NCBI RefSeq assembly: GCF_001447785.1
Contig: NW_015173130.1
Coordinates: 20,924 to 84,923, forward strand
Direction of reading: 5' to 3'
Source of the DNA: Gekko japonicus
Lineage: Eukaryota
DNA length: 64,000 bases
A program made the position numbers and the translations under genes. This document shows, piece after piece, positions 37,132-60,283 of the stretch (positions within the stretch are counted from its first letter, which is position 1; each line of letters starts with the position of its first letter). Under the pieces are notes generated by a model that was given only the letters and a program-made list of their open reading frames with translations, did not search any database and had not been told where the DNA came from.

Positions 37132-37239
37132 CTCCCCACCAACTATATTTTTGAACAGCCCTAGAAACATGCACATTTATAACTGACTGTCTGCAATATA
37201 TATATGTGCCATTTGGGAAAACATGAAATAACACAATAT

Positions 37240-37665
37240 ATATGAAGCTGCCTTATACTGACTGAGACCATTGGCCATCAAGGTAAGTAATTTGTACTCA
37301 AGATTGGCAGTGGCTCTTCAGGGTTTTAGACAGAGGTTTTTCACATCACCTACTGCCTGGTCCTATTTTAACTGGAGGTGTGAGGGACTGAACCTGGGAC
37401 TTCGTACAAGTAGATAATCTATCACTGAGCCACAGCCCCTTCCCAAATAGAGTACAATACACATGAAGCTGCCTTATATACTGAATTAGACCATCAGTCC
37501 CATCAAAGTCTACTGTCTATTCAGACTGGCAGCAGCTCTCCAGGATCTCAGTTAGAGGTCTTTCATGTCACCTACTACCTGATCCTTAACTAGAGATGCC
37601 AGGGATTGAACCTGGGACCTTCTGCATGCCAAACAGATGCTCTACCAGTGAGTCGCAGCCTTCGC
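37240..37665 (-). mobile_element. Two tandem tRNA-head SINEs with CR1-like tails (family also at 52550-52745 and 63500-63710)
   Basis: ggctcagtggtagagcatctg...ggtcccaggttcaatccc head on -; aaggcagcttcatgtgtat tail. Confidence 0.8.
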
Positions 37666-37991
37666 CTGCAGTATGAGCACATAGTTTGAACTCTGAAAAT
37701 GTAAAAAAAGTTTACCATTTCCTCAAATTGTGTTACTGCTTGCACGATTTGAAAGTTTAGACGTAGAATATTAGTTTCTAAAATATGGCCTTGCACTGTT
37801 CTCAGGACAGCACCCCCCTGTTACCATACTAGAAAGAAGGTATATGAGGTATAAGGTATGCAGGCCAGCCCACCGAAAACCTTGATTAAATTATTGAGAA
37901 GAAAAGGAACAATCTGTTTTTCCAGTCACCGTTCCAAGAACTGGCTATTTAAACCACTTTGCTGTGACACTAATAATAGTTCAGTGCCATA

Positions 37992-38334
37992 AAGGTAAAG
38001 GTTCCCTTGCTCGAAAGCCAGTCGAATCCGACTCTAGGGTTGCGGTGCTCATCTCCGTTTCCAAGCCGAAGAGCCAGCGCTGTCCGAAGACGTTTCCGTG
38101 GTCATGTGGCCGGCATGACTAAACACCAAGGTGCACGGAACGCTGTTACCTCCCCACTGAAGTGGTACCTATTTATCTACTTGCAATTTCTTGCTTTCGA
38201 GCTGCTAGGTTGGCAGGAGCTGGAACTAGAGACGGGAGCTCACTCCGTCATGCAGCACACTCGGGTCTCGAACTGCTGAACTACCGACCTTCCACAGCCT
38301 GCAGTTCAGCGTCTTAACCACTTGAGCCACCGCA
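37992..38334 (-). mobile_element. Sauria SINE, full length
   Basis: tRNA-like head, (ACCTTT)n tail, flanking gccata duplication. Confidence 0.88.
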
Positions 38335-39050
38335 GCCATAGCAAACAGGACCCACTGTAACTCTCCCCACCCCCCAATCATTTCAAACAGCCTTGCGTAC
38401 AAGCCTCATAGAAATGGGGGACAGTGAGAGCATCAAAGAGGCCTTTATTCTTTAATGACTTTATGAGATTCTTTACTGCATCTCTTTAGGGATGAGGAAT
38501 TCATTTGTAACTCAAGAAAACCCAGCGCTGCCTGAACTGAAGGTAATTGCCATCTACAAAGCAAGAGAGTCTCACTCAGCTATATGAAGGCCAAAAAGCG
38601 AATACATTGTGGATTTGATGCTGGCTGTTGTTGTTCTTTACTGTTTGGCTGTCCCTTCAACTGCCTTTTTTTTTTTTGGCAGAGAAGCAGCTTATAAATA
38701 CTTGAAGACCAGTCAAATAAATCACAGAGTTTCATAGCAATCCTGTTGGGGTCTATTTGTCCCCTCCCTCCTAGCTTCTGCTGCTCCATTTTTCTCTCAC
38801 TCTTCCTGGCAATGTCTAATTTTATCCAAGAGGTGAAAAAGTGAAGTCATTGTGTGGTGCCTTCCCCTTTCCTGGCTCAGATCACTGGCTGTAGATAGTG
38901 GGGGGGGGGGGCAGGAGAACATCTTGCAGCATGACATCATGTCACCCACTGTGCTGAAACCAGACATTACAGAGAAGAGAAGGAAACACAGAGGACTGTT
39001 GACCCACATTTCTTATAATACTAACAGAGAGAGAAAAGTCAGAGAACTAC

Positions 39051-39103
39051 CTTTGTAGCAGGCCTGGTGCTGTTGGAGGAGTCATCCCAAATTCCATGTA
39101 TCT
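39051..39103 (-). CDS. KIAA1549: KIAA1549 small exon (RYMEFGMTPPTAPGLLQR)
   Basis: Homologous to human RYEDYGMTPPT; acceptor cttcttctag, donor AG|gtagtt; 53 nt, phase 0-2. Confidence 0.9.
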
Positions 39104-40953
39104 CTAGAAGAAGATCATGGTATTAAAACACAACAAAAACAAGTGTCCTTTTTAAGCATCTTTAGATCTACAATAGTAAGAGATTAATCTGATTTATACA
39201 CAGGAATGTATGCTAAATTAAGTGAGAATTTAATTTAAGGTTTGGGGGAGAATTTTATAAATAAATATGAATTATGTTAGTCTTCTGGTTTTATATGATG
39301 AGGAGTCACTATGGTGGACCCATACATTTCACAAGAATGGGGGGATTTGCAGGACTCCTGGAATTATGCCTCTTAGTTCACAGCATCCAGATATGGGTAC
39401 TTTCCCACTTATAGAATAAACCAGTGGCTATCAACCTGTCTTCTAAACAGCAGCTTCCCCTCCTCACAATATTAATCAAAGAACAATTCAGCCATAGAAC
39501 ACATAATGCCAAAAAATCACTGACACTCATTCGTGTAAATTGTTCACAGCCAGTTTCGTGGGCATGCTCAGGCAAGGAACTGCTGGTGAGTCCTGTTAAC
39601 CATTTTAGGCAAGAGCAAGGGGGAAAGAATAAACTTAACACATAAAGCTGTCTCATGCTTTATTGTATTTATTTACTTCGTTTACACCCTGCCTTTCTCC
39701 TCAATGGGGAACTAAAGCAGCTTACATTCTTCTCCTCTCCTCCATTTTATCGTCGTGACAACCTTGGGAGGCAGGTTAGGTTGAGACTGTGTGACTGGCC
39801 CAACGTTACCCAGCAAGCTACATGGTAGACTGGGGATCTGAACCCGGGTGAACCTTGTAAGCTGCTTTGGCTCCTCATTGGGGAGAAATGTGAGGTATAA
39901 ATATATCTAAATACATAAATAAAATAGAACTCCTCAGTGGATCCGCTGTTGACATCAGAACATGGCAACTACCCCCCTGTGTGGTCTCAGGAGACTGGCT
40001 GGACACTTGGGAATGGCTAGGGACAATCCTTAAAGTGTGCAGGGGGAAAGGTGGAGGGGGGACACTGGACTAGATAGATCCAGAAAGGCTTGTTTTATGG
40101 TTTTAATCCTCTTACACAGGGGCTTGATGAAGCGCAGGGGTGAGCCACTGTAAGCAGAATTGGCTTGTTTTTGTATCACCACCACATACAGTCATGTTCT
40201 CTGCATTGTGGCCACTGCATAAAAGTAGACTGTCACAATCCAGGATGGTCAAAGTGCCAAGACCTGCAAAGGACCTTGAACTCCAGCAAAGCAGCAATGA
40301 AATGTTTATGCAAGCTCAGGAAGGGTTCTGGCTTTGTTTTCTACAGAGATGTATTATAAAGATGCAGCGCAGCACTGCATGAGAATGCTATCCACCAGCA
40401 AGCCAGTCAAAAGACGTACACAGCAATGCTAATGTTCTCTGCTCCGTAAGCTAATAAAACAGGGACCTGGCTCAAGGTGGAGGCCACCTTGTTTTGTAGA
40501 TTCTGGGGTGCCCAGTGAGCTTTGAATAATACTTTCCAGATATAAAACCTGTAATCAAAAGTGGCTGGGGTTGTTTTATTTTTGTCTTGCTGAGCACAGC
40601 TATACCCATTCTGCCCCCTCCACGTTGCCCAATTAACTCTGGCAGTGTCCTCAATCAGTGTTTTGACTGTAGGGTTTTTTCCTATTTATCTATTGCACTT
40701 TCATTAATGCCAGATGTAGATGAAAGACTAGGAGGCTTTAAGATGGGATGTCAAGCGGTCACTTTCCCTTCACATTACACAAATTGTACAATTATTTTTA
40801 CCCCACCCTGAATCTTTGGAATACCATGGGTTACAAACATAAGCAAGCAAATGAATAAATAAAACAACTGAAAGCACAGCAAACAGCAACAGATGCTAGG
40901 CATTTCTGCAACCTTTAAAACTGCACCACTGCGGTCTTGAAATGGCTGCTTAC

Positions 40954-41221
40954 TGTGTGTGTCGGGCCATATGGAGACCCCCACTGGCTGCCTGAGGTCT
41001 CTCTTGCTGCTCGGACAGGTGTGTTGTTTGTTGGCTGTCCCCCTGAGCCTCCAGGGTGCGTGATGGCAGCAGAACTGGTGGTTTGGCTACTGGGGGCCAC
41101 CAGGGCAAAGGCATCATCCAAGAGAGAATGCATTGTCTGCCGGGCCTCTTCAATGGAGGGCTGAGGAGGGGTGTACTGAGATGGGTGCGGGGGCAGGCCT
41201 GAGTACTTCCCCAGCTCAGTC
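40954..41221 (-). CDS. KIAA1549: KIAA1549 internal exon, 5' part lost in N-gap (...TELGKYSGLPPHPSQYTPPQPSIEEARQTMHSLLDDAFALVAPSSQ...GPTHT)
   Basis: Conserved PQPSIEEARQTMHSLLDDAFALVAPSS; donor ACA|gtaagc in phase 0 (exact 3' boundary less certain); acceptor falls in gap 41222-41273. Confidence 0.9.
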
Positions 41222-42246
41222 NNNNNNNNNNNNNNNNNNNNNNNNNNNNNNNNNNNNNNNNNNNNNNNNNNNNTCAGCTAAGTGAGACCACTACTTTAGC
41301 AGCAGTAAACATTCCACTACCTAAGGATAAAACCAAACAGGTTAAGCACTTGTGAAAGTGTTTTTCCTCTCACAAAGGGGAGACTTAAGTTGCTGACAAG
41401 GTGTGGAAGGGATTGGATTAAATACCCTGTCCTCCAGCAACTCTTCATCGGTCTTCAAACCAGCCATGTGGGCTTAGAAACACCCCCCCCCCAAATCTGT
41501 GAGACAAGATCCTAATCACTCTTCTCATGTGTTGTTTGAAACGAGGCAGATTAACTTGCTACAGTGGTGATATTTGTAGGTCATATTTTTCACAGTTCAT
41601 ATCTACAGAGATTAGCTCATCAACAATACTTCCTCATCTGGAGCAGGCAGGTGGTGGATTACTACATATCCCAGAACAAGTGCAATCACCTATTTTGCAC
41701 ATTATACTAATCTTGGGCCCGCACCTTTTCTACACGGAAGTGAAGTCTGAAGTACTGTATGTGCAAGGGGTTTCCCCCTCCCCCAAAGGGGAGGCATGCA
41801 AACAAATGAAAATCCCCTGAATAAAGTCTCTAGGTCAGAGAACTTCATTTACTTCAAGCTGAGGACCAATTCGCACATCTGCATGCCTGTGGGAACGTGA
41901 TCGATCCAGTCTCTGCCTTGGCCTCAGACTTCCAAGTTGGGTCTGCTAACACTGTTTTGGATGGGTTTGCCCTGTGAATTAACCCTCAAGCCTACAAAGC
42001 CACCTTCTCAAGCAGCTGATTACACTTGCCCTGTTTAGTATTAAATGAATTCAAGACAGGGCTGTAAACAAGGTAGCTCAAAATGCCTCTGGAAAACCAG
42101 AGATAGTTTTGCATAATCATTCTTTGCATTATGCAGATTCAAGACAGCAACACTACTTGCTTCTAGAGAAGCAGATGTCTTCGCTCCACCCTACAATTTA
42201 TCATAAAGTGCTGCTCTCCCCACCCACCCCTAAAAGCCAAACGTAC

Positions 42247-42391
42247 AATGTATGCAGAGTTGTTAACTCCTGGAGGCCTCTTGTAGGTCCCATCACTGTC
42301 AGTAGTGATCAACCTGTCCTTGTCTGCATCCATCGGGCTTCCATTTAGCTGATGTCTCCGGCGTTGCCTTGGGGACCGTTTAGCCCGTGAA
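42247..42391 (-). CDS. KIAA1549: KIAA1549 internal exon (SRAKRSPRQRRRHQLNGSPMDADKDRLITTDSDGTYKRPPGVNNSAYI)
   Basis: Conserved KDRLITTDSDGTY.RPPGV.NSAYI; acceptor tctttgtag, donor ATT|gtacgt; 145 nt, phase 2-0. Confidence 0.95.
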
Positions 42392-42662
42392 CTACAAAGA
42401 CATTGAAAAAAAGTTAAAACCTGTTTTCCAACTTACTAGGATAGGCCTTCAAAACTGGAACTGTGGGTCCCTGCTGCACCAAGCCTTTTCTTAATATGTT
42501 TGAGAGGCGTAGTGGTGTAGTGGTTAGAGTGTCGGACTGGGATCTGGGAGACCCAGGTTCGAGTCCCTGCTCAGCCATGGAAGTTCACCGGATGACCTTC
42601 GGCCAGTCATACACTCTCAGCCTAACCTACCTCACACGGCTGTAGTAGTGAGGATAAAGAAT

Positions 42663-43032
42663 GGTGTGAGTCACCCAGCGGAGAGAAATGCAAGTTTATA
42701 AATGAAGATAACAATAACATGAGCATACTACAGAGTCTGTAGAGTCTGAATCACACAAAAGCCTCTCTGAGTTGGTAATATAGTAATCTTAGAGGGGCAA
42801 ACTTGAACAAAATGAGAGAGAAAGAAAAATCCTACACCGTTGTTGCTGGTGTGAGTCACCCAGCGGAGAGAAATGCAGGTTTATAAATGAAGATAACAAC
42901 AACATGAGCATACTACAGAGTCTGTAGAGTCTGAATCACACAAAAGCCTGTCTGAGTTGGTAATATAGTAATCTTAGAGGGGTAAACTTGAACAAAATGA
43001 GAGAGAAAGAAAAATCCTGCACCGTTGTTGCT
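42663..43032. repeat. Tandem duplication, 2 x 185 bp
   Basis: 42663-42847 is repeated at 42848-43032 with about five substitutions. Confidence 0.92.
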
Positions 43033-43631
43033 GTTTTTTTCATTTGGTTCCATCCAATGGGCCCACAATGTAGCTTATGATATCATGGGGGGGGGGGTGG
43101 GTTTGATGGCATCTAAAACTGTCTGAGTTAAATCTAACAACAACTGGCTCAAAACTACTCAAATGTGTACACAACATGGCCAAAAGAGGAACAGCAAACA
43201 GATTAAAATTATACTAAAACAGTCTTGACATGTTTCCGGAAGACTGGTGGTGAGGTTAAGCACACAGAGGAGGCTGTTCCTGCAAAGCCCTTCTCCTAGG
43301 AGATGCCAACCATGACACAAGCAAGGAAGGCATGCAGCGAGATCTTCATGCCCCACTGAGATTTCTTTATGGGACAAAGTACTCTCTGAGATACTGTGAA
43401 AACACTGCCCAGGAGGGGCCCGTTAAAAACAACAAATACTAAATTCTTACTCCTCAGAGCCCAGGATCTCATGCACACTGCTATGCATAATTCTTTCCAC
43501 CTTTTGCAAATGAAGATGATTGCTGTAAACATAAACCTTAGCTGACCTTATAAATCTAAATGACAGCATAGTTTGCACACTTCCACATGCACAGAGAATG
43601 GTCTCCGTCTCCAGCTCTATATCATTGTTAC

Positions 43632-43855
43632 CTCTTCCTGGGCTCTATGAAGACAGTCGGCATATTGCCTCCAGGGTCCAAGATCTTGTCTATCTGCATC
43701 TGTGCCTTGCGGTACATTCTCTGCTGCTCTTTGGTGTCGATGATAATCATGTCATCTACAATCGGAAACTCGTAATGTCCTTTGCGCTTGGCTCGAAGTC
43801 GGATCTTGTTGCGGTGATGCTCTATTTCAGATTTATGCCTCAGGGCTGTTTGGAT
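43632..43855 (-). CDS. KIAA1549: KIAA1549 internal exon (IQTALRHKSEIEHHRNKIRLRAKRKGHYEFP...VFIEPRKS)
   Basis: Highly conserved KIAA1549/KIAA1549L peptide; acceptor attttaaag, donor AG|gtaaca; 224 nt, phase 0-2. Confidence 0.96.
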
Positions 43856-45719
43856 CTTTAAAATAAAAACAAAAGCATTATAAATATACTCTAGAACACA
43901 AAACGTTTCTCAGTTCTGTGGCAGAGGATTGTGTGGAAGGGGAGAAACGTAAGATGATAAATGTTAAAAGCACACGTCTCAATAACACCCTGATGTCTCG
44001 GTCTCCAGACTATAATTCACCAGCAGAATTTCCAGGTAGAAGAATGATTGCGCACAGCATGATGATTAACAGAGCAAGGGCAATTAGAGAGAGAGTGCAG
44101 AGTGTGAATAAAAATGCATGACAAATAGCAAATTATATCTCATGCAGGCTGCCATAAAATTGAACAGCAGCAAGAAAATGAGAAGGGAACCAGATTTTAG
44201 TATCTGCTTGTATGGCAGAACTGAAACTTGGGAGGCACACCTAAAGTTTACACAGGAATAAATTTAGTGTATAGTGTACTATCTGCCTCAACAGAGCTTA
44301 CTCCATGTATTTCTGTATAAGTTACTGCTCTGGACAAGCCTCCTTTGAATGCAGATAATTCTACTACATCTCTGTGTTGGGAGTGAATGAATGATACAAT
44401 CATGCATGGGTGTGGCAGAATCACTTACCCCAGAAGAGGCCGAGTGGAAGGTCAGATCAGTGAATCATACAGAGGCACAGTACGTGTTTCCTGTGTCCTG
44501 TTTGTGGTTCCTCCAGTCATCAATGTCTAGGTTTTTAAAAGGGGGCTATGAACTTTCCCCCTTTCCTTAAGATATTTCCTATTGTAATTTGGTTAATGGG
44601 TCTTTTCCAAGAACAGAGGAATGCATATTATCAGGCAAGCCATTATCTTTAGATATATTGGCACTGAGCTTATGCTCTGTTGGCTGCCCTCCAACTCTGA
44701 ACCCCAGTCACACATGCACAAATGTACATATATATTTGCCTCGGTCTGCAAGGCCTTACAAGTGTGGGGACTCAAATGCCATACGAGTTTCTTAGCCCAC
44801 AAGGTCTTGTGGAAATGAATGGGAAGCTAATGCAAAATTGTTAAATCAATGTAGCTGGAGAAACAAACAAATGGAGAGACTATTCATATAGCTGCACTGA
44901 TCTCTTATCTTTCCTATGCATGCGCCCCTGTCATTTTGTACTCTCTCTCTTTCCTCTCATCCAGAGCAATTTTGCCAAAACTGCTGCTGCTGGGAGCAAG
45001 GGAGAAGCATGCTACTCTGTGACCCACAGCTCTGACATCTACTAGCAAGTGTTCTCATATTTTCTACCCCAGGTTGATGAGGAATGCACAGTGGTGGCAC
45101 AGTGGGTATATCCCACTGTCTTAACATCTGAACTGTGTTAGTTCGAGCCCCGCGCTGGTGTGAGCAGCCAGCCTGTTGTCCCCAGCTCATCGTCCATACA
45201 GCGATTCAAAAGCTTCGGCGAGTAGATAAAATGGGAACCACTCCTTAGAGAGGGTGGGCACACCAATCTCCCTTGTGGGAGGGTGTTAGCTGACGGCCAG
45301 ACGTCCTGGTCGAGGTTCGGAAAAGGCAAAAAAACCTTCTTGGCTACAAAGAATCCCTGCAGTGGATGTTCTGGCCAGGCGGTGGCAGTGTGGCGATTGA
45401 CATACGGGTCCTGAAGCCTGGTCAACAAGCATTCGTGCGGAAAACGACGGAGCCAAGCCAGTAGACGTCTACACCGGGCAGTGACGGCGTGTGCAATTAA
45501 ATGAATATATGTTGTCTTCCCTATCCCCTACAAACATTGTTAGTCATAAGAACATAAGAACATAAGAGACGCCAATGTTGGATCAGGCCAAAGGCCCATC
45601 CAGTCTGTGTCACACAGTGGCCAGAAATACCAGTGCCATCAGGAGGTCCACCAGTGTCTATATTGAATAACTGTACATCGCTTTGAGCCCACTGGGGAAA
45701 GCGATTAATAAATGGAAAG

Positions 45720-45741
45720 TATTATTATTATTATTATTATT

Positions 45742-45787
<46 letters not shown>
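45720..45787. repeat. Compound (ATT)n(ATC)n microsatellite
   Basis: Directly visible. Confidence 0.95.
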
Positions 45788-45789
<2 letters not shown>

Positions 45790-45878
45790 GGTTTTCTAGA
45801 AGCTAGAACACAGAGAAGTAGTTTAGTTGGAAATGGGAGTGTCTATGACCTTTGAGGCGCCTTAACAAAACTCTAGAT

Positions 45879-46263
45879 CAAGGGTGTCAAACATAAGGCC
45901 CAGGGGCCAGAACCAGCCTTCCCAGGCCTCTTACCCAGACTGCAAACAACTGGTATGTATGGAAATGTAAGGTACTCCCCCTTTTATGGTATCTCCTGGA
46001 AAAAAAACTAGTCTTGATTAAATACATTTATTGGGGCTTTTGTGGGCTCCCCAGTAAATCAATTGCTTTCACTGCTAGAAATCAATTGCTTTTGTTTGTA
46101 TTTTGAGTAAAAATTAATATTGTTTATTTGGTTTGTCTGTGTCCTTTATGAAGTCTATATCTCTGGTACCCGATGTTACATTTTATGGCATACATGGCCC
46201 AGCACAACAAAATGACATTTATTTCTGATCCGACCCTTGTAACAAATGAGTTTGACACCTCTG
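45879..46263. mobile_element. hAT-type MITE
   Basis: TIRs caagggtgtcaaac / gtttgacacctctg; 8-bp TSD ctctagat. Confidence 0.88.
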
Positions 46264-46511
46264 CTCTAGATTCTTCAACTTCTACAGGCCAAGGCCTATG
46301 TCAGTTTTATACCAATTTAACCATCATGCCATTTTCTCAAAGAATCCTGGGAACTTGGTAAGAACCTCTGTTAATAACTCCCTCTCCCCAGGGAATCCTA
46401 GGAACTGCAGTTCTTTGAGGGGAGCTAGGAATGTCTATTCAACCAGGTTATACATATATTCTGTGGGAAGCTTATAGTCTCTCCAACTCAACTCTTCATA
46501 AAATGCATTAC

Positions 46512-46717
46512 CTCCTTGTTAATTTTGTTGGTCTCTGCTACTCGGTCAGACAGTGGTTGGTTCTGAACTGGAGGTGCTGCAATGGGCTGCATGGCAATCA
46601 ACTGGATCTTGTTGGGGACTCTCCTGCTGACTTCTGAGGATCGTGACATTCTGTCCACGTGCTCAAAGATGGAGGCTGAGGAGTGTTGCTCTGTTCCATT
46701 ACTCAACTGTGGAGGGC
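46512..46717 (-). CDS. KIAA1549: KIAA1549 internal exon (GPPQLSNGTEQHSSASIFEHVDR...AETNKINKE)
   Basis: Conserved EQHSSASIFEHVDR and KIQLIAMQP motifs; acceptor tttaaatcag, donor GAG|gtaatg; 206 nt, phase 1-0. Confidence 0.95.
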
Positions 46718-46846
46718 CTGATTTAAAAAAACAAATGTAAGGTAGAGATCACTGTCACTCTAATAATATTAAAGACCCAGGGTATAAGTGGAGGAAGAAA
46801 ACCTTGCTGAAGCTAAGTCTAGGTTGTTTTGATGGAAGCTTTATAT

Positions 46847-47940
46847 TTCATTTCTAACTTTATTGGCATAAAAGATGCTGATAAATTACTATCAAGAATA
46901 AATACAAAGGTCTGATAGATGATAAGAACAGAGACGTAAAACAGTTAATTAAGATAGTGACCAATAATACAGATCAAGTATGTATTTAAATTAATAAAAC
47001 ATAAGAAATAAATAGGAAAAATAGGTGTCCAACAATTAAGATACATTTTCATTTTATAAACTTCAGCTAAAATTTGGCAACATATGTAGTGATTTGAGAG
47101 GTGACATCTTCTAAAAGATAAATTAAACTGTTTCCCTTAATGAAGACACTATGCTGGAAGTATTTAGACAGAAATTGTTTACATTATAAAGCAAGGAGGG
47201 GACACTCTAAAATGATATGGAATAAAGAATCAAGAGTACCTAATTCACATGGACAAAACCTATTTTGAGAAGGTATTTGCCTAAATCTACTAAAAAGGAC
47301 TACCGATGGAAAAGCATTTAAACGGGCCAAAGTAAAGGCTCAGCGCTGGAATGGGGAATCCCATTCCACGCCTTTGATATATACCTAAATTAGCTGCAGA
47401 ACAGACAGGGGGTGCGAAGGGAACACTTTTTGGAATTCATGATCCATAAGCATTAGTTGAATTATTCTTAAAATATATGATTTGTCGCATAAAAGAAAGG
47501 AATCTACCACAATCCCTTGAAGTTTGTTAATGAATATAGAAAACCAAACAGTGCTGTGTTGATCTTTCATTAAGTGGGATAATAAGCTTCCGGGTTCAGA
47601 TCTAAAATGAATTTTTAACCAGTATTTGAAAGCCATAATCCAAACCCTAGTTTCCAAAAGGTAAAGACCCAACTCCGCACATATAGATGAATGGGGAACA
47701 CATTTGGGAACTCCCTCATAATCTGCAGAAAGAAGCATGATTGTACCTCCTCCATGCAAAAATTAAAGGCTTTAATTCACAAGGAGGGAGATTTTTTGCA
47801 TTATAGATTTTCAAGGCTGCTGAGATGAACTGATGACCTCCTAAAAACTAAAACTTTTTAATTTGCGCCAGAAAGCATTTCACTAAGTTTATAGTTCTGT
47901 TATGGTGCTCTGGCCATCCAAGGATGTAATGCCAGGTACT
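46847..47940 (-). mobile_element. RTE-X-like LINE 3' fragment flanked by a ~140-bp direct duplication
   Basis: GVPKCVPHSSICAELGL...FKYWLKIH and FTLARLNAFPS...RFCPC...HIILECP; aataaa plus tgaaat tail. Confidence 0.75.
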
Positions 47941-48412
47941 CTGTGGAGGGCCTGAATTAGAAGGACAAAAGCAAGGTAGAAATCACTGCCACTCTAATAA
48001 TCTTAAAGGCCCAGGGTATGAGTGGAGGATGAGAACAGCTTACTGAAGCTAAGTCTAGGTCTGGGCCATTTTGATGGAAGCTTTATATACACCTGGAATT
48101 CCATGATGGAAGAAAGGAAGGAATATTACTGTAATCTTTCTATATAATAATTGTGTTTTGGGGTGACACTTTGCAGCTCTCCCATTGGTTGTACAATGCG
48201 CTCCCTCAGCTATTGGCCCATCAGCTCCCACTCAAAAGTACTCGCGTGCCATTGGCCGGGTGCTGGGTCTGGCTCCTCTTCCCAGCGCACTCCCCCTTCA
48301 GCCACTGTGCCCTGTCAGAATTACTGGCAAACGGCTTTCTCTCTTGATGGAGGCGCTTCTCCTGCTTGCCTCCTACGTGGGACAAACTTTTCACTCAGTG
48401 GCTGTTGGTAGG

Positions 48413-49140
48413 TGTAACGAAATGGCAGTTACCTGTGTTTGTATGATGGCTGCCATGTGGCTGTTTGTTTAAAACGTTCCCTCATAAGGTTTAATTGAGC
48501 TGTAGTTCCAGAGAGGGGCCTGCAGGATTATCACTCACTGGGTTGAATGGGGCTTCTTCATCTGCTGGGCTACAGTTCCCAGATGCCCCAAGGCCAAAAA
48601 GTGTGGGAAAAGAGAGACCATCACAAGGGGCAGGGCAGCATCAATATAGACTCCATCCCATCCCAGGAGAAGGCAGTCTTCATCCTATGGGAGGTTAGGA
48701 AAGGCTCCTGCTGCCTGTACTGACAAGGCTGTCCAGGCCAGAAGCCACAGATGTGGGGGCGGCAGCAGAAATTCAGCCACTCCACAGTCGGCTGGNNNNN
48801 NNNNNNNNNNNNNNNNNNNNNNNNNNNNNNNNNNNNNNNNNNNNNNNNNNNNNNNNNNNNNNNNNNNNNNNNNNNNNNNNNNNNNNNNNNNNNNNNTTCC
48901 CTGCACACACCCTCCAGAGGTAGAGAGTATTGTGTGTAGGCAAAGAGGATTGCGTTTAACTCCTGTTGATTTATGCCCTGATGGTTCATAGTGTGTGCTT
49001 ACTCCTAAAGTTCTGCCTTATTCATTTAGTGTGTGTGTGTACTCCATAATTGTGTAAATAGTTAAATAAATTCTTTCATTTGGGCTACTAATCTGTGTTG
49101 TGCTCTGACCACATAGTCTTTCCCGCTCTGCACAATAACA
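48413..49140 (+). mobile_element. Solo LTR (Gypsy-like), contains N-gap
   Basis: TGTAACG...ATAACA termini; AATAAA near the 3' end; flanks tagg/aagg. Confidence 0.6.
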
Positions 49141-49180
49141 AAGGGAGGGGGTAGCCCAAGGAAGCAAGTAAAGGCCAGAC

Positions 49181-49924
49181 TAGGGGTGTGCAAAAAAAAA
49201 AAAATTGTCCCATTCAGATTCGGCCAAATCGGGCAGAATCAATTTTGGCTGGCAATAAGACTCCTGCATGTCAGTCCCATCAGTACCAGCCGATTCGGGA
49301 GTCTTTTGGCCAGCCGAAAATCAATTTCAGCCCCATTATATCCTATGGGCCATTGAAGTCAATGGTAAAAACATAGGGTATATTCTGGGGGCTGGAGGGA
49401 AGGGGGCTTGAGGGAGAGACTCCAAACTCTCAGGGTAGCTGCTGGAGCCTCTCCCCAAGATACCAACCAAGTTTCAAGAGCATTGGAACAGGGGGTCCAA
49501 TTCTACAGGCCCTCAAACAGGTTACCCCTATCCCCTCCATTGTTCTCTATGGTGGGAAAAAGTTACAAGCCAGTTGGGTGTAGTGGTTAAGTGTTCGGAC
49601 TCTAATCTGGGAGAACCAGGTTTGATTCCCCACTCCTCCACTTGCACCTGCTGATGTGACCTTGGGTCAGTCACAAGCTCTGGCAAAGCTGTCCTTGAAA
49701 AAGAGCAGTTTATGTCAGAGTTCTCTCAGCCCCACCCACCTCACAGGGTGTCTGTTGTGGGGAGGGGAAGGGAAAGGAGTTTGTAAGCCACTCTGAGACT
49801 CCAAGTCAAGGGCGGGGTAAAAATCCAATCTCTTCTCTTCTTCTATGTTTTCGCCATTGACTTCAATGGCCCATATAGGATATAAGGGGGGCGAATTGCC
49901 GCTGAAATTCGGCAGCAATTCGGA
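49181..49924. mobile_element. DNA-transposon-derived MITE (taggggtgtgc terminus) interrupted by a SINE and an L1
   Basis: attcgg/ccgaa subrepeats; inverted ccattgaagtcaatgg / ccattgacttcaatgg. Confidence 0.6.
49568..49844 (+). mobile_element. tRNA-derived SINE (Squam3-like)
   Basis: Box A tgtagtggtt and box B ggtttgattcc; (TCT)n tail. Confidence 0.85.
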
Positions 49925-51500
49925 CTTCCGGTTCACGAAGCAGCGATGGCGGACGTTCTCCCTGAGCAGCAGGAGGGCGAATCACACACCAGCAGCCTGG
50001 AGGGGTGCCACTTCAAGTGACACCCCCGCGGAGCGTTTGCGATAGGCTCCAGGCCAGAGGGCTTTGAGGGGTAGCCGATGGCATAATGCCGGAGAATTGA
50101 AGCTCCCCTCTGCCCTGATGGTCCAGTCACTGTGTGGCCTTCAGGCACAAGCTGGTTTGACTGGAACAAGCGCTGGAGATCGAGCGGAAGATCATTAAAA
50201 TGCAGCGTGGTCAGAGAATCTGACCGACAATGAACGTGAGTTCTGAATAAAACAGACTTTTTAAAAGCGGATTCCCCCCCCCCCCAGTGCGGGAAGAAGC
50301 AGATGCAAAGAGGGGCGCCTTTTATGCAAATAACCGATAAACGACGCGAAGGGGGAAAAGAGGGGAGGAAAGTAGCGTGTGTGTTGTGAGAGACTTACTT
50401 GATTTTTGACATTGTGAGCAAGTTTCTCGAGTCGGGAGAAAGTGGTGGGAAGTGTAAACAAATCGGAAAAATGGCGGCCCAGCATGCAAAGTTAAAAACG
50501 AAACCGCCAGGCAGTTAGAGTCCCAAACCGGAAGAGGGTGCAGACGTCATCAAATTACTAGCAGATATGCTCAAGCCGGTGATGGAACAACTCGATGGTA
50601 TTAACCAGCAACTGACTGTGATGAACAAGAACTTTGCATCTCAACAGCTCCAGCTGAATGAAACGGAAAAGAAAGTGGAGTAGGCTAATGAGAAAATTTA
50701 AGGGATGGACACCACAAATAAGAAGTTGAAGAAAAGACTGGGACAGGTGGAAACAAAGCAAAATCTTCAAGAAAACCGTGTGCTGCAACTACAGATGGAA
50801 AAAGCCACTATGATTCTCAGGTTCCAGGGAGTTCCTGAAGCAGCGAAAGAGGACCTGAGGAGGTTGCTTAGCGAGATCATCGCTCCAGTGATAGGCTCTA
50901 CAGCGGATGAATTAGTAAAAGATATGGAGGTGGCCTATAGGGCATACTCCAATTATATTTTAAAAAATAGCCTACCTGGAGAAATTGTGGTCAGATTCTC
51001 AAGAAGAAAGACTAGAGATGCTATTTTAAAAGCAACATCAGCAACTCCACTGAAAATGGGAAATGTAATTATCAAGACGTTAAAAGACATTCCATTTGAA
51101 ATCCGGCAAAAGAGGAAAAATTACAAAGATTTGATTGCTTTTCTTCAAACTAATGGAATAATATACAGGTGGGCGATCCCGGAAGGTGTCATTTTTAAGA
51201 TCAATGATAAAAGAAAAGAAGATAGACTCCATTTTCAAGGCTAAAGAGTTTTTGCAGCATCAGCTTGGAACAGAGGAAGAGTCTGAGGAGGAAGAAACGA
51301 AATCCAGTGACTCTGCTACTTCTGGAACGGAAGAAGACTCTGCTACAGAAACGGGTGCTGGACCTGCCAAAGTTGTCTACGATTTTAGGGACAGAAAGCC
51401 GAAGTAAAGGCAGAAGGACTTGGAAATTGGCCTTTTGAAACGAAGAACACGAAGATGATCAGAAAGTTCTCTCATAACAACTAACATAGTAACATATAAA
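49923..51500 (+). mobile_element. L1-clade element: CpG-rich 5'UTR plus disrupted ORF1 (~50471-51407), no ORF2
   Basis: gacttccgg...gatggcgg start; coiled coil, then LRFQGVPE...E.L, YRA, PGEIVVRF..RKTRDAILK, KDIP, YRW..PEG; in-frame stops and a frameshift. Confidence 0.8.
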
Positions 51501-53008
51501 CATGGAAGATGGGCAGGAACTCTACAAGTATATTGTGATACTAACACTTGTGTTTCACCACAGAAGGCAACCAAGCTTGGTTCAGACAAAGGAAGGAAAC
51601 CCTTCACAGGCCTTTGTGAGGAACTCACTGTGGCCAGTCCTGACTAGGGTTGCGAGCTCCAAGTAGGGAGATTCCTGGAGATTTTCTCGTAGAGTCTATG
51701 GAAGCCCGGGTTTGGGGAGGGGAAAGGCCTCAGCTGAACAGAATGCCATAAAGCCCACCTTCCAAAGCAGTTATTTTCTCCAGGGGGGAGAGATCTGTTG
51801 CATGGAGTTCAGTTGTGATACCTGATCTTCAGGCTCCACCTGGAGGTTGGCTACCCTAGGTGTAGCAGTCAGGGCTTCAGAGCAGGGTCTGCTAGATCCA
51901 GGTTCTTGCTGTAGAAGCTGAGTGGGTGATTTTGGACCAGTCACAGACTTTCAGCCTAACCTACCTCACAGGGTTGTTGTGCAAGTCAAAAGGGGGAGAA
52001 GAGAATGATGTAAGCTGCTCTGGTCCCCATTGCAGAGAAAGACTACTTTTCCTCCTGGGGAACCATTGTTGCCAATCTCCAGGTGAGGGGTGGAGATCAT
52101 TCAGCATTACAACTGATCTCCAGGAGGGAGGGCAGAAGTCAGCTGCCGTCAGAGGGGCAGATAAGAGTAGGTTGATGGTTAGCTGGGAAGGGGATGGGAT
52201 TGCCAACTCCAGGTTGGGAAATTCCTGGGGATTTCAGAGGTGGAGCCTGGAGAGGGTGGGGTTTGAGGAGGTTGCCACAGCAAATTGATGCTGAGTGCCC
52301 AAGGCCTTGACACTCTCCCAGAGCCTCTTTCTAGAGCTTGTTCTATTTATTTCCGTAACGAGCCTTATGCCTAGTAAATATATAAGATCCAAAGAATACA
52401 TGATTTTGCAATCCTGTTCTGGATCATATATTAATCCACTATTTGAACACGAAACAATCAAAATACTGTTAAGGATTTTTAAAAAAATTCTAAGGCCACA
52501 GAAAAGGCTTAACTGTGTAGACACTTAAAATAGGTATATATTATGAACACTGAATACACTGAATTAGACCCCTGGTCCATCAAAGTCAGTATTGTCTGCT
52601 CAGATTACATGCAACTCTCCAGGATCTCAGGCTGAGGTCTTTCACATCACCTACTGCCTGGTCCTTTTATCTGGAGATGTTGGGGACTGAACCTGGGCCC
52701 TTCTGCATACAAGCAGATGCTCTACCACTAAGCCACAGCCCCTTCATTGCAGAAAGAGATTTGATATACATTGTATATTTTATAACATTCTTGAACAGCA
52801 GCATTTCAAGACTTGATTTTTACTGTATCTAGTAATTCCCTTGGCCACTCCTCCAAATTCACAAACATTTTGGCCCAACAAATGTGACTCTCAGCATAAA
52901 TGACCTCGAGTACATTGCTGGATGCTGGCAGAGCTGAGAAAAGTTGATTTGATTTACTCAAGATAGATTTCTCCCCCTTTCTTTCAATGGCCCTGCTGTC
53001 TCAGAACT

Positions 53009-53275
53009 GCCAGTTTGGTATAGTGGTGAAGTGCGCAGACTCTAATCTGGGAGAACGAGGTTTGATTCCCCACTCCTCCACATGTACCTGCTGGATGACC
53101 TTGGGCAAGCCATAGTCTGGCACAGCTGTTCTTGAAAAGAGCAGTTTGTGTCAGAGCTCTCTCAGCCCCACCCACCTCACAGGGTGTCTGTTGTGGGAGG
53201 GGGAAGGGAAAGGAGTGTGTAAGCCGCTCTGAGACTCATTTGGGTAGTGGGGTATAAATCCAATCTCTTCTTCTT
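53009..53275 (+). mobile_element. tRNA-derived SINE (Squam3-like)
   Basis: Closely similar to the 49568 copy. Confidence 0.85.
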
Positions 53276-54885
53276 TTTCTCTTTTGCTGACTTCTCTTTT
53301 GGCATTAGAGATTCTTCTGGCTTGTGGATGCTCACTCAAACCAAACCAAGCAGTGCTAAATTTTAATTCATGCATTTAATGGTGTTTTTAATTGTGTGAT
53401 GTTTATATTTTCAAAGCTGCCTTGGGCATTGTGGAAAGGAGGAATAGAAATATTGTAAATAAATAACTCATTATGAATTTAGGCAGATCGTGAGAGGGAG
53501 GGCATGAACAGATGAGCTCAGCTCTTGTAGCCATTTCTTATATGCCCAGGGTAATGACAATTGCCACTTTGGAGTCAGGAAAGAATTTTCCTCCAGGTCA
53601 GATTGTCCCAGGGATCATGGAGGTTTTTTTTTTTTGCCTTCCTCTGGGCATAGAGCAGAGGTCACTGGAGGAGAGATAGCTGTAAATCTCCTGCATCATG
53701 CAGGGGGTTGGACTAGATGACCATTGGGATCCCTTCCAGCTCCATGTTTCTATGTTAAATAAACAAGCAAACCTACTGCTTTTGCAGTGTGGAGGCAGAT
53801 GGTAATGAGTCTAGGTTAAGTCCTAGAGCAATGCAACCTGCAGATAAGCCTGAGAAGCTAGCAGAATTGGGCCTTTGGGGACACATGACAAACATTCCAA
53901 AGTGAAAGAGAGCCAGTGTGGCATAGTGGTTAGAATGTGGGACTTGCACTAAGAGACCCAGGTTCAGTCTCCTTTCAACTATGAGACTTGCTGGATGACC
54001 CCTGGCAAGTCACCTTCTTAGCCTAATGGACCTTAAAGGATTGGGGCAGGGGACCATGGAAAGGGTGAGATAAAGAAACAAACCCTGAAGTAAAACAAAC
54101 CCTGTGAAAACATCCTATGTTCCAAAGCAGAACATGCCCTTTTTAAGCACATCTAGTGCCCTTTGCTACAAGCTTTGCAGCTTGATGGGTAAAATACCAG
54201 CAACAGAATTCAATTGACACCCAAATAACATCGTCACTCTCGAAAATAAGGGCAGACACCTTCTTTCTCAAAAGCTTAACAGAAAGTACAGGGTCACAGC
54301 TTCCCCCCTCACTATCGATCATTCACACCTCTACACAAATGCTATATTCTGCAGGTAATAACTGCAATATTCCCAACGCCTCCATTTGCTCATACATATG
54401 AATCTACTTAAATACTTAAATCTACTTAAATAGGCTTCCATAGACAACCAAGCTACAGAAGCTAAGGGGGAGGAGGAAGAAGGTCAAGCAAGAAGTCTAC
54501 CCAGAGAGTTCACATGCTGCAGACAGTACAAGCCAATTAATTCCTAGAGGGTTTCTCTACCACAGCCGGAATGGTTCCTTTTGCCAAAAATAGCTTAATT
54601 AAGCTTTCTCAGGGTTACAACTTTTTCCCCGTTAAAAAAGGTCTCATGATTTTTCTAGATGAGCACACATTTTATCTTGGACAGGGCAGAGGAGACAATG
54701 AGATCCAAGAAGATTAACAAGGACGAAGAAAGGTATTTGCCTGGGTCAGATACGAGGGGTATATGCACAACTTCAAGTGGCTGCCTGAAATCAAAGATTG
54801 GGCAAGAGGACACTGCTGTCCTCCAAGAGGGTTTTAGCCACCCACCACATATAGTACAGATGCACAGGACTAAAAAAAAAAAAGT

Positions 54886-55053
54886 CACCCCTAAGCTAAG
54901 CAGGGTCAGCCTTGGATGGGTGACCAAGGAAGTCCAGGGTCGCTACATAGAGGCACACAATGACAACCCGATACTGAACATCTCTCGCCTTGAAAACCAC
55001 ACTAATGGTCGCCATTAGTTGGCTCCAAATTTAGGGCATTTTCCACCACCACC
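54886..55053 (+). mobile_element. 5S-derived SINE, partial
   Basis: aagctaagcagggtcagccttggatggg...ccaccaccac tail. Confidence 0.7.
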
Positions 55054-55746
55054 ATCCACTTTATAAAGATTCAGACCAGCAACCTATCTAGGTCGTTATT
55101 ACTCAGAACTCGCCAGCATCTCAAACAGAGCCCACTGTAAGTCCTGCTGCCTGAGATTTTCTAACAGGAGACAGCAAGAAGAGCCTTATACATGCAAATC
55201 ACGTGCTCTACCACTGCCTATATCTCCTCCAGCTAACCCACTTGTAGATCAACTGAGACTTCCACTTGGGGGAATCAGATCTGCACAGGGACAGAAAGCA
55301 CTGAATAGCAGGCAGCTAACAAACTAGTTACACATCACACACTAAAGCTCGTGCTAGGGTTGCCATACCCCAGTTGGGGGCAGGGGATCCCCTGGTTTTG
55401 TGGGCTCCTGCCCAACACCAGCCAACTGGCCGGAGGAAGGAAATCCCCCCCAAAAAAGTGACATTGCCCCTGAAGTCACCAATGTGCCTACGCCACTTCT
55501 GGGTGATATAGGCACATCATGCGACAACGCTTCCAGCTCCCGGAACATCCCCCACTGGATTTCCGATAGACCTGGCAAACCGTAGCTAGTGCCCACAATA
55601 TTTTCTTTAAAAGCCACAAAGCATTCTTTTTAAAAAAGGCAAACTTTTGAAGACGAGCAGGGCAAGGAGGAGGAGGAGGAGCCACTTTAAGGGCCAGTGT
55701 GGAGCACAGAAAGAGTGAACACTTGCGCTAACGCTCTCCACCCATA

Positions 55747-56090
55747 AAGGTAAAGGTTCCCTTGCTTGAAAGCCAGTCGAATCCGACTCTAGGGTTGTGG
55801 TGCTCATCTCCATTTCAAAGCGGAAGAGCCAGCGCTTTCCGAAGACATTTTCGTGGTCATGTGGCCAGCATGACTAAACACCAAGGCGCACGGAACGCAG
55901 TTACCTTCCCACTAAAGTGGTACCTATTTATCTACTTGCAATTTCTTGCTTTTGAACTGGTAAGTTGGCTGGAGCTGGAACTAGAGACGGGAGCTCACTC
56001 CGTCATGCGGCACACTCGGGTCTCGAACTGCTGAACTACCGACCTTCCACAGCCTGCAGTTCAGCGTCTTAACCACTTGAGCCACCGCAG
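55747..56090 (-). mobile_element. Sauria SINE, full length, near-identical to the 37992 copy
   Basis: TSD ctccacccata; (ACCTTT)n tail. Confidence 0.9.
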
Positions 56091-56736
56091 CTCCACCCAT
56101 AGCCATGTACACTTTAAAGGACATAGCACTGTTTAGCGGCATTGTAGCTTGTTTAGTGGCAGATAAACACACGTCCGTGCATGGGTTTATATAATATGGG
56201 GAGTGATAAAGACATACAGAGGATGACACTGTTAACCGGTACCTGGAGGAAGAAGGACTGTTGTCATTAAGATGGCTGCTGAGCTGTTGCTGTGAGGGCC
56301 TCTAGGCCCAAGGTGTATAAAATGTAAATAAACCTGTTGAATTCTTTCACAAGTGGCTGAGATCTGTTCTGCTGGGGAATCTGGAGGTTCTTCCTAAATT
56401 CCCATTATAACATGGAGAAGCATACACGCATAAAATTTAGACACTAAAATCAGGGCTGCCAACAGGCCTGGAGTTAAATGTCCCAGCCCTTTAATAGAGG
56501 AGTAATGGGACGTTATTCACCACAATGCCATGAAAAGCTTCAACTGCTCATTTCCACACACTGAGCCTCTATTAAAGGGACAAGACATTTTTTTTGTCTC
56601 CAGGTCTGCTGGCAATCCTCACTGAAAATCAAGTGTACTTTAAATATTAATATTTAAATATTCATGAAGACACTCTCATCTTATGTCTTACAAGACCAAT
56701 TAATGTGTTTGGGTTGTGTTTTTTTTAGAAACTTAC

Positions 56737-56751
56737 CGACTCTGTTTATTC
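56737..56751 (-). CDS. KIAA1549: Candidate 15-nt KIAA1549 microexon (adds INRVG, giving KTG-INRVG-PPQ)
   Basis: cttttcccctgatgctgctag|GAATAAACAGAGTCG|gtaagt; phase 1-1, no stop, frame preserved. Confidence 0.55.
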
Positions 56752-57676
56752 CTAGCAGCATCAGGGGAAAAGATAACAGCACAGTTATCATTTAGCATGC
56801 TATAGGTGAAGAGTCAGATGCTACTGAAGCGAACTCTGTTATATCAGGGTTTTCTACTGTTCAGTAGTAGAAACCAAATGTTCTTGAAAAAGGGCCTATT
56901 ACAGGCCCCCGGAGAACTTATCACTTAAGAGTGAATTCAGGGATTCACATGCTTCTGTGCTTGAACGTTTCAAACCCAGCTTACACTTTTTCGGTATACA
57001 AGGAATTTTTAACTTGAGGGCACATTTAAATTTGAATCTGCATTGTGAAGTGGTACAGCCTGGGGAGGAACTGTACCATATCCCCCCCCCCAATCAACTA
57101 TGAGTACTGTTGTGTGTTTATACAGAACTCATGAGAGTAGCATCACGATTGCCTCATTGACTCAGACATTAACTAAGGCTCAGGCTTAACACCTGCATTT
57201 TAACATTTGCCAAATTAAAGAGCAAGTCTCATTATAAAGTCTTTGAACCCCCAAACGAACAGCACAATGAACATAGTAGCGCTTTAAATAAACGTACCAC
57301 CCCTCATTTAATTCTTTACACAAGTTGGTGTGCATTTTAAAACAAGAGCATATAAATGTGTCTCACAAGAACTAGTTGGCAGCTTTCCTGTTAGCACACG
57401 AAACGTTCACAGAGGGATGAGAGACTGGATAACTCCTGACATACTTATTTTCATTTCAAAACATTCACATATGACTTTCTGACTGCAGCTGCAATGCTGG
57501 AGGAGGGAATGTTTAACCTCTTATCCTCCTGGGTGCCTTTTCAGATCAAAATCCCCCTCCCATTACCTTCAGGTGACCGAAAATAAATACACTGACAGAC
57601 CCAAACACTATTCTCCCATATAGTGTGTCGTTCAGCCCTATAATGCAAACAGGGCAGCGAGGGGGGGGAGGCATAC

Positions 57677-57801
57677 CAGTCTTGCCACCTCTGTGGGGTT
57701 TGGCCTCACTGACTGCATTCTGCGGCCTGGTAGATTCTTCTCCTGTTTCGCGTCCACTAGACTGGTCACTTGCAGTGGAGTCAGCATCAGAGGGGGTAAC
57801 T
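57677..57801 (-). CDS. KIAA1549: KIAA1549 internal exon (RVTPSDADSTASDQSSGRE...RGGKTG)
   Basis: Homologous to human VSPSDADSTVSEESS; acceptor cgtacag, donor G|gtatgc; 125 nt, phase 2-1. Confidence 0.92.
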
Positions 57802-58876
57802 CTGTACGTACGAAAAGCCAAAGCATTTTTTTTTAAAGGTGGTATAATGCTGTATACAAGGAAGCGTAAAATACCAAGAGAACAAGCATGCACATCTTTC
57901 CCATTTCGCTTTGAACAGATTATTGGAGTTGCTTCACTCTGCCTTCTGCTGCAGTCAGCAACATGCAGATTTCATCAAATAAAGCTGATTGTCAGTGAAC
58001 AGGACAGATAAAAGAAAGCATTCCCTGAAACAATATATAATTGCGGAACTTGCTGCAACAGGATCCCAGAATTAGGCACATTCACTGGGGTTAGGTCTGC
58101 TAACAGCAATTAGCCATGACAGCTATGTGGAATCTACATTTCAGATGTATTCTATTGTCAGATTACCAAATAGTGGGAACACATAGCAGCTGGCCACTAC
58201 TACTTCCTTCAAAAAAATACTGCAAGAAACATTTCTGGCATTAGCACATTAGCATTAAGCAAAGTACGGCAGTTCAAGTATGAAATAATACATTTATATG
58301 GACTAGAATATAAAAATGGCCCAGGAGAAAATTGAAAGGCCCCAGTGATGCTAACAGCCCTGCAGGGACAACTCAGCTTGCCGCTGTGCCACAGCAACCG
58401 CAATGATGGGTGCCAGTGAGGGCACAGGTGGAAGCCTATTGCTGCTGGTCGGGTACTAAGCTGAGTGACCTGCACTGCTGCCAACACCACTGGGTGTCAG
58501 CCCAACTTGGTCCAGGATAGGAGTGATACTCAAGAGCAGTGGCTTTCCTAGGAAGCTAACAGGCCAACCTGCCTCTGCAGGAAACACCGGAAAATTTAGT
58601 CACACAAATAAATCACATTAGGATCCACACTATGCAGGCAGATCCCAACTCATCCCTAGCTTCTTAACTTTAAAAAAATCTGCACAATTAAAAAGCAGCC
58701 TGGAAAAAAACCCAAGAATGAACAAGCCACAAATCCTTTCAGACGAATGCAAAAAGCAAGTTCCTGAGCGGAAGCTGTTCCGATGGAGGGGGAGGGAAGC
58801 TTAGCTGAGCAAAATAATCCTCCACAGCCAATTAACTTTAATCTGTGCCTAGCAATTTCTTGTCCACTGAACTGAC

Positions 58877-59079
58877 CTCCCTCTGTGTCGGACATTCTTG
58901 GATGGCTTTGAAGAGATCTTGGTCTTGGGGCTTGGCAGGTCACCGTTTTCAGAAGGGGTGGTGTCCTTAATTGGTCCCGGAAGAGGAGTCGGCTCGTGTA
59001 TGATCAGGATGTCGTCTTTGTTGTGCTGGCCTAAATGCTGCTTTGCAAAATCAAAGCCCTTCACACTGGGGGCTTGCAA
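58877..59079 (-). CDS. KIAA1549: KIAA1549 internal exon (LQAPSVKGFDFAKQHLGQHNKDDILIIHEP...KNVRHRGR)
   Basis: Recognisable KIAA1549 peptide; acceptor ttcccccattgcag, donor AG|gtcagt; 203 nt, phase 0-2. Upstream exons lie beyond the window. Confidence 0.95.
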
Positions 59080-60283
59080 CTGCAATGGGGGAAAAAGGAA
59101 AAGAAACAAAGCAGTGCTACCATGTGCTGACATCAAAACTGTCATCAAAAGTATAAGCGGCAAGGCTTGGACTGGTGAATCCAAAGGTGTAAAGTATGAC
59201 ACAGCAGTGTGGAAATAGAACAAATGTGCATGAACTGCTGGAAAATCATTTCCATGATATTGTGGACGCGATCAGAAGTCTTCTGACATACCTATGGTTA
59301 CATTCAGTCTGTACTTCTGCTGCACAAACTTAATCACACATTATGAATTCTGTCCTTTAAGGAGGTCCTGCATTGCCCAGAACAAATTGTAGAAATGGAA
59401 GTACAGAAAAGGGATGCAGAAATGCATAATGTGCCTGGTATTCCCCTGAGCACATCCCACAGAAGACAATGTACCTTACAGTACAAACGGTGGAGAGAAG
59501 GCAACTAAAACGAGGCACCACAGAAAGGCCTATGGGAAGGAGCTACTCATCCCGTGACTTTGCATGCTAGTTGTGGACTGCAATCCTAAATAAAACAAAA
59601 ACCCACTTTCATGGGAGTAAGCCCTAATGAATAAAACTCAACTTCTGAGTAGATCCACTTAGGACTGCTCTCTTAGAGGCCAACTTGTTCTTATAACCAA
59701 GATGCTCAGCAAGACAAATCAAGAACACGAATACATAGAATCTGCACAAATCTAATCATTATAAAGAACAATAACATAAACATCTATACGGCACCATCAA
59801 CATGAACAGCATTTCACAGAGTAACAATGAACAGACCAGGCCGCAGTGAGGCCTGTACAAACTAACACTCAACAGAAGAAAGAGTTGTGCCAGAGGCTTG
59901 ACTGAAAACATGGGTTTCGAGAAGGAATTCAATGAGACAATGTGTGAATTACATAAGCGCTCCTGAAGTAAGAAAGCGTGGAATTGTCTAAGGGAACAGA
60001 ACTTTGGTGAGCTGAAGCAGAAAATGTCACAGTAATTTAAATGTACTATGATATTATTTATGGAAAATGGCAGCTATTCCCTAATCTCCATTCAAACAAG
60101 GTTAAGAACATTTAGTTTTATGAGCAGAACTGTTGTTAGTGGTAAATATGATATCATCACCCAAGGATGGTACCATTGCACCTGGCTGCAGAAGGCTGCA
60201 ATCTCTCTCTGGACCAGCAGAGGGAGATAAGAGTCCTATTCTTTAATTCAGAGGAAAAGGTCTACCTCTCTTTGATAGACAGA

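Follow-up and report, generated by a model that had tools for sequence, protein, structure and literature searches.

A 15-nt alternative microexon of KIAA1549 in Gekko japonicus, its probable retinal use and a candidate RVxP-like motif

The 3' part of KIAA1549 lies on the minus strand of the window, a 64 kb stretch of Gekko japonicus DNA, and one intron of the gene contains a 15-nt cassette with the hallmarks of a microexon; the question is whether this cassette is a genuine exon, in which tissue it is included, and what five additional residues would bring to the protein. The features to which the text refers are as follows.

25536..59082, minus strand: 3' portion of KIAA1549 (PF12877), with the microexon and ten coding exons located by tblastn
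58877..59079, minus strand: preceding KIAA1549 exon, the anchor for the contig arithmetic
57801-57677, minus strand: upstream exon, 125 nt, presumed equivalent of human exon 12
56796..56800, minus strand: GCATG RBFOX-type motif at -49, in the upstream intron
56779..56781, minus strand: third TGC, at -30
56763..56776, minus strand: pyrimidine tract, -25 to -12
56755..56760, minus strand: tandem TGCTGC at -9 and -6, predicted SRRM3/4 site (motif meaning from the available passages of PMC9303857)
56752..56754, minus strand: acceptor TAG (context ctag / GAATAAACAGAGTCG / gtaagt)
56751-56737, minus strand: 15-nt cassette microexon, phase 1-1, adding INRVG (from sequence and frame, orthologous inserts and the surplus in contig X11)
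56731..56736, minus strand: donor GTAAGT
46717-46512, minus strand: downstream exon, 206 nt, presumed equivalent of human exon 13

Pfam PF12877 (KIAA1549) is matched by five of the eight translated stretches scanned, and the downstream exon is 99% identical to the proteins of Gekko kuhli and Heteronotia; the bounds of the upstream exon have been corrected to 57801-57677 (125 nt). In each of Anolis, Pogona and gharial, isoforms differ by a single S at the 58877/57801 junction, and an S stands at the equivalent place in Xenopus, which suggests tandem splice sites; the constitutive R[VI][ST]P motif is built across this junction as well. Where the upstream exon ends, about nine residues are missing from several models of bat, pig, cattle and pangolin. 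Those of lungfish and medaka are similarly shortened, and an alternative donor just before the microexon's intron is apparent. A recurring 32-residue alternative segment starting VNNTP, found in bird and tortoise isoforms, corresponds to about 40950-41050 (minus strand) and is probably an alternative donor. The acceptor region of the downstream exon (46707-46846, minus strand), with its AG and the first 11 bases of the exon, is duplicated at 47941-48088 over 96 nt at 86% and 41 nt at 80%; the copy, 1234 nt upstream of the true site, offers a possible decoy 3' splice site at 47951 which, read from the sequence, would lead to a stop within about 35 codons if used, and read depth there is low. 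In the microexon's intron a repeat of about 230 nt occurs twice (49569-49801 and 53009-53237), and a LINE ORF1-like fragment with a weak PF02994 match (E 0.062) lies at 50702-51241 on the plus strand; repeats draw most of the reads. Further along the window, a GC-rich island at about 8100-8750 contains a minus-strand, signal-peptide-like frame (8507-8217) that has no Pfam match and is perhaps the first exon of a neighboring gene.

Read directly from the window, the minus strand at the cassette is ...ttatcttttcccctgatgctgctag / GAATAAACAGAGTCG / gtaagt, and the consensus donor and good acceptor proposed in the first-pass annotation are both present, placing the exon at 56751-56737. Its length falls within the 3-27 nt range of microexons with canonical AG/GT borders, and translation bears out the predicted reading: both flanking junctions are phase 1, and inclusion changes KTG-PPQ to KTG-INRVG-PPQ with neither frameshift nor stop. 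The three TGC motifs reported in the last ~30 nt are likewise found, at -30, -9 and -6. As a gauge of chance, across both strands of the 64 kb window 220 YAG..GTRAG cassettes of 3-30 nt were counted (117 and 103 per strand), of which 29 pass a filter for a pyrimidine tract and an AG-free interval, and the 15-nt cassette is the only one of these 29 with two TGC in the last 20 nt. Within the host intron three cassettes pass the filter, and this one alone has a length that is a multiple of three. The UGC motif by itself is not rare, as at least two TGC lie within about 20 nt at 17 of 358 YAG sites of the host intron, and at least three within 34 nt at six of the 358; the decisive evidence is therefore conservation together with transcript data.

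Two contigs, both presumed to derive from RNA, span the relevant junction. In the contig of the own species (X1, the run that best matches the 3' end of the window) the anchored exons are separated by 126 letters, exactly the number predicted by skipping. In that of a close relative (X11), which differs by five and two letters in two exons of about 205 nt, the interval is 139 letters where skipping predicts 124; the surplus, by count of letters, is exactly 15, and it lies on the contig's main path. The raw reads (X20 and X21) cover the exons thinly, with repeats filling the joint and loose-end tables; in these repeat-filled tables and in the X1 contig, which skips the exon, no inclusion junction from the own species was seen.

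Conservation is seen at the protein level. A five-residue insert at the KTG/PPQ junction is carried by 19 of the best 120 of 708 protein matches, and by 81 of the 477 proteins bearing the downstream anchor when all searches are pooled; this pool contains redundant isoforms, is partly enriched by a search favoring insert-bearing forms, and includes 26 sequences, some 20 being fragments of a single exon, in which the upstream anchor pattern is missing. The lineages represented are squamates, turtles, a crocodilian, birds, lungfish and teleosts, often with a skipping isoform beside the inserted one. The squamate peptides are INRVG, VNRVG, VNRIG, VNRVA, LNKVG and LNKMG, the Pogona insert being identical to that of the gecko; birds and turtles have ANRVG or TNRVG, the gharial ANRVG, the lungfish KNKVG and two teleosts KNRIG. 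Isoform pairs with and without the insert are modeled in Heteronotia (XP_060101631.1 with, XP_060101632.1 without), lungfish (XP_043944140.1/XP_043944141.1), Puntigrus (XP_043072595.1/XP_043072597.1), Pogona (model XP_078232353.1), a tortoise, Anolis, and several lizards and birds. Of 19 lineage representatives, 18 retain the N, 18 have R or K after it and 18 have V or I at the next position, while in the same set the columns shortly before the insert (-9, -7, -3 and -1) show five to eight different residues; the search pattern for the insert itself selects for such residues, and a pattern-free length check run as a control found no other recurring insert at the junction. The 15-nt cassette is also the only five-residue cassette found between isoforms in 17 sauropsid species groups. 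The insert is absent from eight of eight amphibian and six of six shark sequences, both small samples. The distribution among these protein sequences indicates that the exon is at least as old as the bony vertebrates.

Other inserts at this junction were considered. Those of gar (KFG) and a pangolin, those of P0140 and P0146, and one of 18 residues present in two macaque models and in a mandrill are probably artefacts of modeling and were not retained. The model of Paroedura picta (XP_077196912.1, P0299) has eight extra residues, DLRKKLNK, before GINRVG, which suggests a second exon of 24 nt; the best match to such an exon in the window (57326, minus strand) has no AG acceptor, and the candidate was rejected.

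With position, length and frame conserved among the proteins, and with both included and skipped forms present in relatives' isoform pairs and in the X11 (+15) and X1 (skip) contigs, the cassette is confirmed as a real, alternatively spliced, in-frame exon. It could still be real in relatives and silent or decayed in Gekko japonicus itself, as the skipping own-species contig and the lack of an own-species inclusion joint would have it; this is very improbable given the intact consensus splice sites, the open frame, a peptide equal to that of Pogona and the inclusion-length contig from a close relative. The exon was also described as hidden and easily missed, a description that does not hold: it is part of RefSeq and UniRef models for many relatives, and a KIAA1549 exon of 15 nt in chicken appears in a published table derived from VastDB (PMC9303857, available passages). 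The exon is already known from public gene models, and very probably from a published list of retina microexons.

This chicken exon, GgaEX1031894, is one of 75 chicken retina microexons (PMC9303857, supplement file 2), and in the passages available its inclusion is 24.55% in retina, 2.07% in neural samples and 0.13% in other tissues. On the basis of gene name, length and uniqueness among sauropsid cassettes, it is very likely the orthologue of the gecko exon. With this probable orthologue, the brain/retina specificity first suggested narrows, for chicken, to the retina, inclusion in its other neural samples being low. Among human retina microexons 71% respond to SRRM3/4 and 9% to MSI1, and Srrm3, not Srrm4, is the paralogue highly expressed in mature photoreceptors; in addition, the sequence upstream of retina microexons is enriched for Rbfox, Nova and Elavl motifs, with repression expected from that position, Rbfox motifs being enriched downstream in the case of neural microexons, and UAG is enriched downstream of retina microexons (all PMC9303857, as given in the passages available). 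The gecko exon has the UGC motifs of a retina microexon upstream of its acceptor and a GCATG at -49, with none in the 250 nt downstream; by analogy with the available passages of PMC9303857, this GCATG is predicted to be repressive in non-photoreceptor neurons. YCAY occurs once upstream and three times downstream, and TTTNTTT is not found. The downstream enrichment of UAG, which is not obligatory, is not seen, a single TAG occurring in 250 nt, and with this one downstream TAG control by MSI1 was judged unlikely. The chicken inclusion, far higher in retina than in neural samples, together with the upstream UGC and RBFOX motifs, favors a retinal, SRRM3-type exon, and the gecko exon is probably of this kind rather than pan-neural; the earlier assignment to SRRM3 or SRRM4 is kept as far as the UGC motifs are concerned and tentatively narrowed to Srrm3 by its high level in mature photoreceptors (PMC9303857, available passages).

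It has also been considered that the exon is a pan-neural SRRM4/SRRM3 microexon in squamates, included equally in brain and retina, with restriction to retina being a bird trait. The UGC motifs are common to retina and neural microexons, the inclusion length lies on the main path of the X11 contig, and the insert is frequent in squamate models, which could mean broader inclusion: among the matches listed, 12 of 15 Anolis sequences carry it, as does the only model of each of Eublepharis, Tiliqua and Pseudonaja. The difference in chicken (neural 2.07, retina 24.55; PMC9303857, passages available) and the position of the RBFOX motif upstream of the exon, not downstream, argue against it, as does more weakly, since the zebrafish gene name may differ, the lack of a KIAA1549 row in the 12 supplements of PMC12626424 on conserved neural zebrafish microexons; this alternative is considered rather improbable. 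KIAA1549 has a single row, that of chicken, in 18 supplements of PMC9303857, and none under the names searched in the human, mouse and zebrafish lists, although the exon is present in teleost models; in 18 of the 19 supplement files of PMC7935315 it occurs in expression rows only (five of six matches seen), two gene-level rows were found across 11 of the 12 files of PMC9509328, and the perturbation tables searched have no row for this exon. In the passages of the papers matched, no text linked KIAA1549 to a microexon, and the papers matched for gecko microexons were unrelated.

Mammals present a different picture. In one search, a single one of 102 mammalian anchor-bearing matches has a five-residue insert vs the 19 of 120 given above (Fisher p 7e-5, with rows that are not independent and a mammalian query without the insert); with all searches pooled the figure is one of 188 mammal-assigned sequences, a few of which were assigned by similarity, after the V-ATPase records of one cluster and anchorless fragments had been dropped. 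The claim that the human reference protein lacks the peptide agrees with one human record (CAQ43116.1, P0137). The exception is a UniRef model of Macaca fascicularis (A0A7N9DEA4), SG-IYQVG-PP, a clean insertion against rhesus, which may be a worn orthologue or a model artefact; a search centered on this model gave no other mammalian representative of similar score among the matches listed, and YQVG was not found among the rows seen of the six supplement files of PMC11450717. In human retina, the available passages of PMC10111803 report a novel in-frame exon in KIAA1549 intron 12, validated by RT-PCR and adding 16 residues. The forward primer given there translates to PSDADS of the upstream exon, and the reverse primer reads LEESDP or WRKVIP in two open frames, with no match among the proteins gathered; counting back from a human 15_9 fusion record, the microexon junction corresponds to intron 12, and the human 16-residue exon apparently lies in the same intron as the microexon. 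A skipped-exon event of KIAA1549 is also reported in THUMPD2-knockout HEK293T cells (PMC11014329), in passages that do not name the exon.

KIAA1549 has been located at the connecting cilium and outer plexiform layer of the mouse retina, and its homozygous mutations cause the retinitis pigmentosa RP86 (PMC8280732, available passages). In the Heteronotia protein the main hydrophobic segment spans 1308-1326, the insert is at 1462 and RVGP at 1464, such that the insert lies about 135 residues past the segment; the microexon junction lies in the stretch from Pfam profile position 412 to 424, left unaligned by both flanking exons. From this we infer that the insert sits in a poorly conserved, variable cytoplasmic linker, the disorder of which may be guessed from the poor alignment. 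Inclusion completes R-V-G-P across the junction, the P being the second residue of the downstream exon (46717-46512). [RK]-V-x-P is present at the junction in 74 of 81 insert-bearing proteins vs 7 of 396 others; these seven carry RVPP or RVTP inside the upstream exon, as do marsupial rows, and teleosts carry RIGP with I replacing V. A ciliary targeting role has been ascribed to RVxP/VxPx in polycystin-2, CNGB1b and rhodopsin (PMC5409180, available passages) and in ARL13B, where the motif is internal and needs a membrane anchor (bioRxiv 10.1101/2021.05.25.445488, available passages). The R/K-V-x-P of the insert lies on what is presumed to be the cytoplasmic side, and RVGP is a candidate RVxP ciliary sorting signal, though an unlikely one; in the mostly open-access literature searched, no proposal was found of an RVxP made by a microexon or of a ciliary targeting motif in KIAA1549.

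At this protein-level step alone, it is fairly probable that the exon is real and retinal and that its residues serve as a linker spacer or as a motif other than RVxP, such as a proline-type SH3 ligand or a kinase site. VxPx, found in 58% of mouse proteins, lacks predictive value (PMC5409180, available passages); 18 of 19 representatives have a constitutive R[VI]SP 45 residues upstream; the G that ends the insert is for the most part dictated by the phase-1 junction, and a constitutive exon supplies the P; N is as conserved as V and yet lies outside RVxP; and mouse KIAA1549 is at the cilium though none of the mouse models seen has the insert. N-[RK]-[VI], however, is retained across teleosts, lungfish and birds, as it would not be in a pure spacer, and a random insert of the tail's composition would yield [RK]V at the two positions in about 0.5% of cases, a figure computed after the motif was noticed.

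Taken together, the explanation considered likely is that of an old alternative KIAA1549 exon which in the gecko is mainly retinal, activated by SRRM3 and repressed by RBFOX, and which adds a short binding motif. The exon would be included mainly in the retina; SRRM3 probably switches it on by binding the UGC motifs beside the acceptor, RBFOX bound upstream probably holds it down in other neurons, and the conserved N-[RK]-[VI]-G joins the PP of the next exon, most likely to form a short binding motif. The leading guess for this motif, doubtful as it is, would be an RVxP signal steering the photoreceptor isoform preferentially to the connecting cilium. The exon as such is unremarkable, another catalogued retina microexon in a ciliary disease gene. 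The leads not found in print are its conservation from teleosts and lungfish to birds with near absence from mammalian models, the RVxP-like motif as a concrete handle on a photoreceptor microexon in a protein whose function is unknown, and, in human intron 12, what seems to be coding sequence spliced in the retina beyond the reference exons of a retinitis pigmentosa gene. A broader scheme, which we regard as quite improbable, is that of a photoreceptor switch writing RVxP across the junction, lost in most mammals, worn in primates (the IYQVG of the macaque model, still V-x-P) and with the unannotated 16-residue exon spliced by human retina in the same intron; if true, intron 12 would be an overlooked site for variants in unsolved retinitis pigmentosa.

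Among the closest known systems, the modeled exons of Heteronotia, Pogona, lungfish and Puntigrus share the junction and the length with the gecko exon, both isoforms being modeled; these are predicted models, and their first residue varies (V, I, L, A, T or K) where the gecko has INRVG. GgaEX1031894 shares the gene name and the 15 nt, and very likely corresponds to the only five-residue isoform cassette seen in sauropsids; most birds have ANRVG rather than INRVG. The SRRM3-dependent retina microexons of genes such as DYNC2H1, ARL6, PROM1 and CC2D2A (PMC9303857, available passages) resemble the gecko exon in being 3-27 nt long and in frame with upstream UGC and RBFOX motifs, and their host genes, like KIAA1549, are ciliary and linked to retinal disease; unlike them, the gecko exon shows no downstream UAG enrichment and is largely missing from mammalian models. 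The human transcript MSTRG.38096.12 (PMC10111803, available passages) has, like the gecko, an in-frame, retina-spliced exon in the intron of this junction, and adds 16 residues vs five. At the level of the motif, KIAA1549 is like polycystin-2, CNGB1b, ARL13B and rhodopsin in having R-V-x-P, on a side presumed cytoplasmic, in a membrane protein reported at the cilium; its motif differs from known RVxP signals in that splicing joins it from two exons, some 500 residues before the C-terminus, and in having a constitutive look-alike upstream; ARL13B shows that an internal, membrane-anchored RVxP is workable (bioRxiv 10.1101/2021.05.25.445488, available passages).
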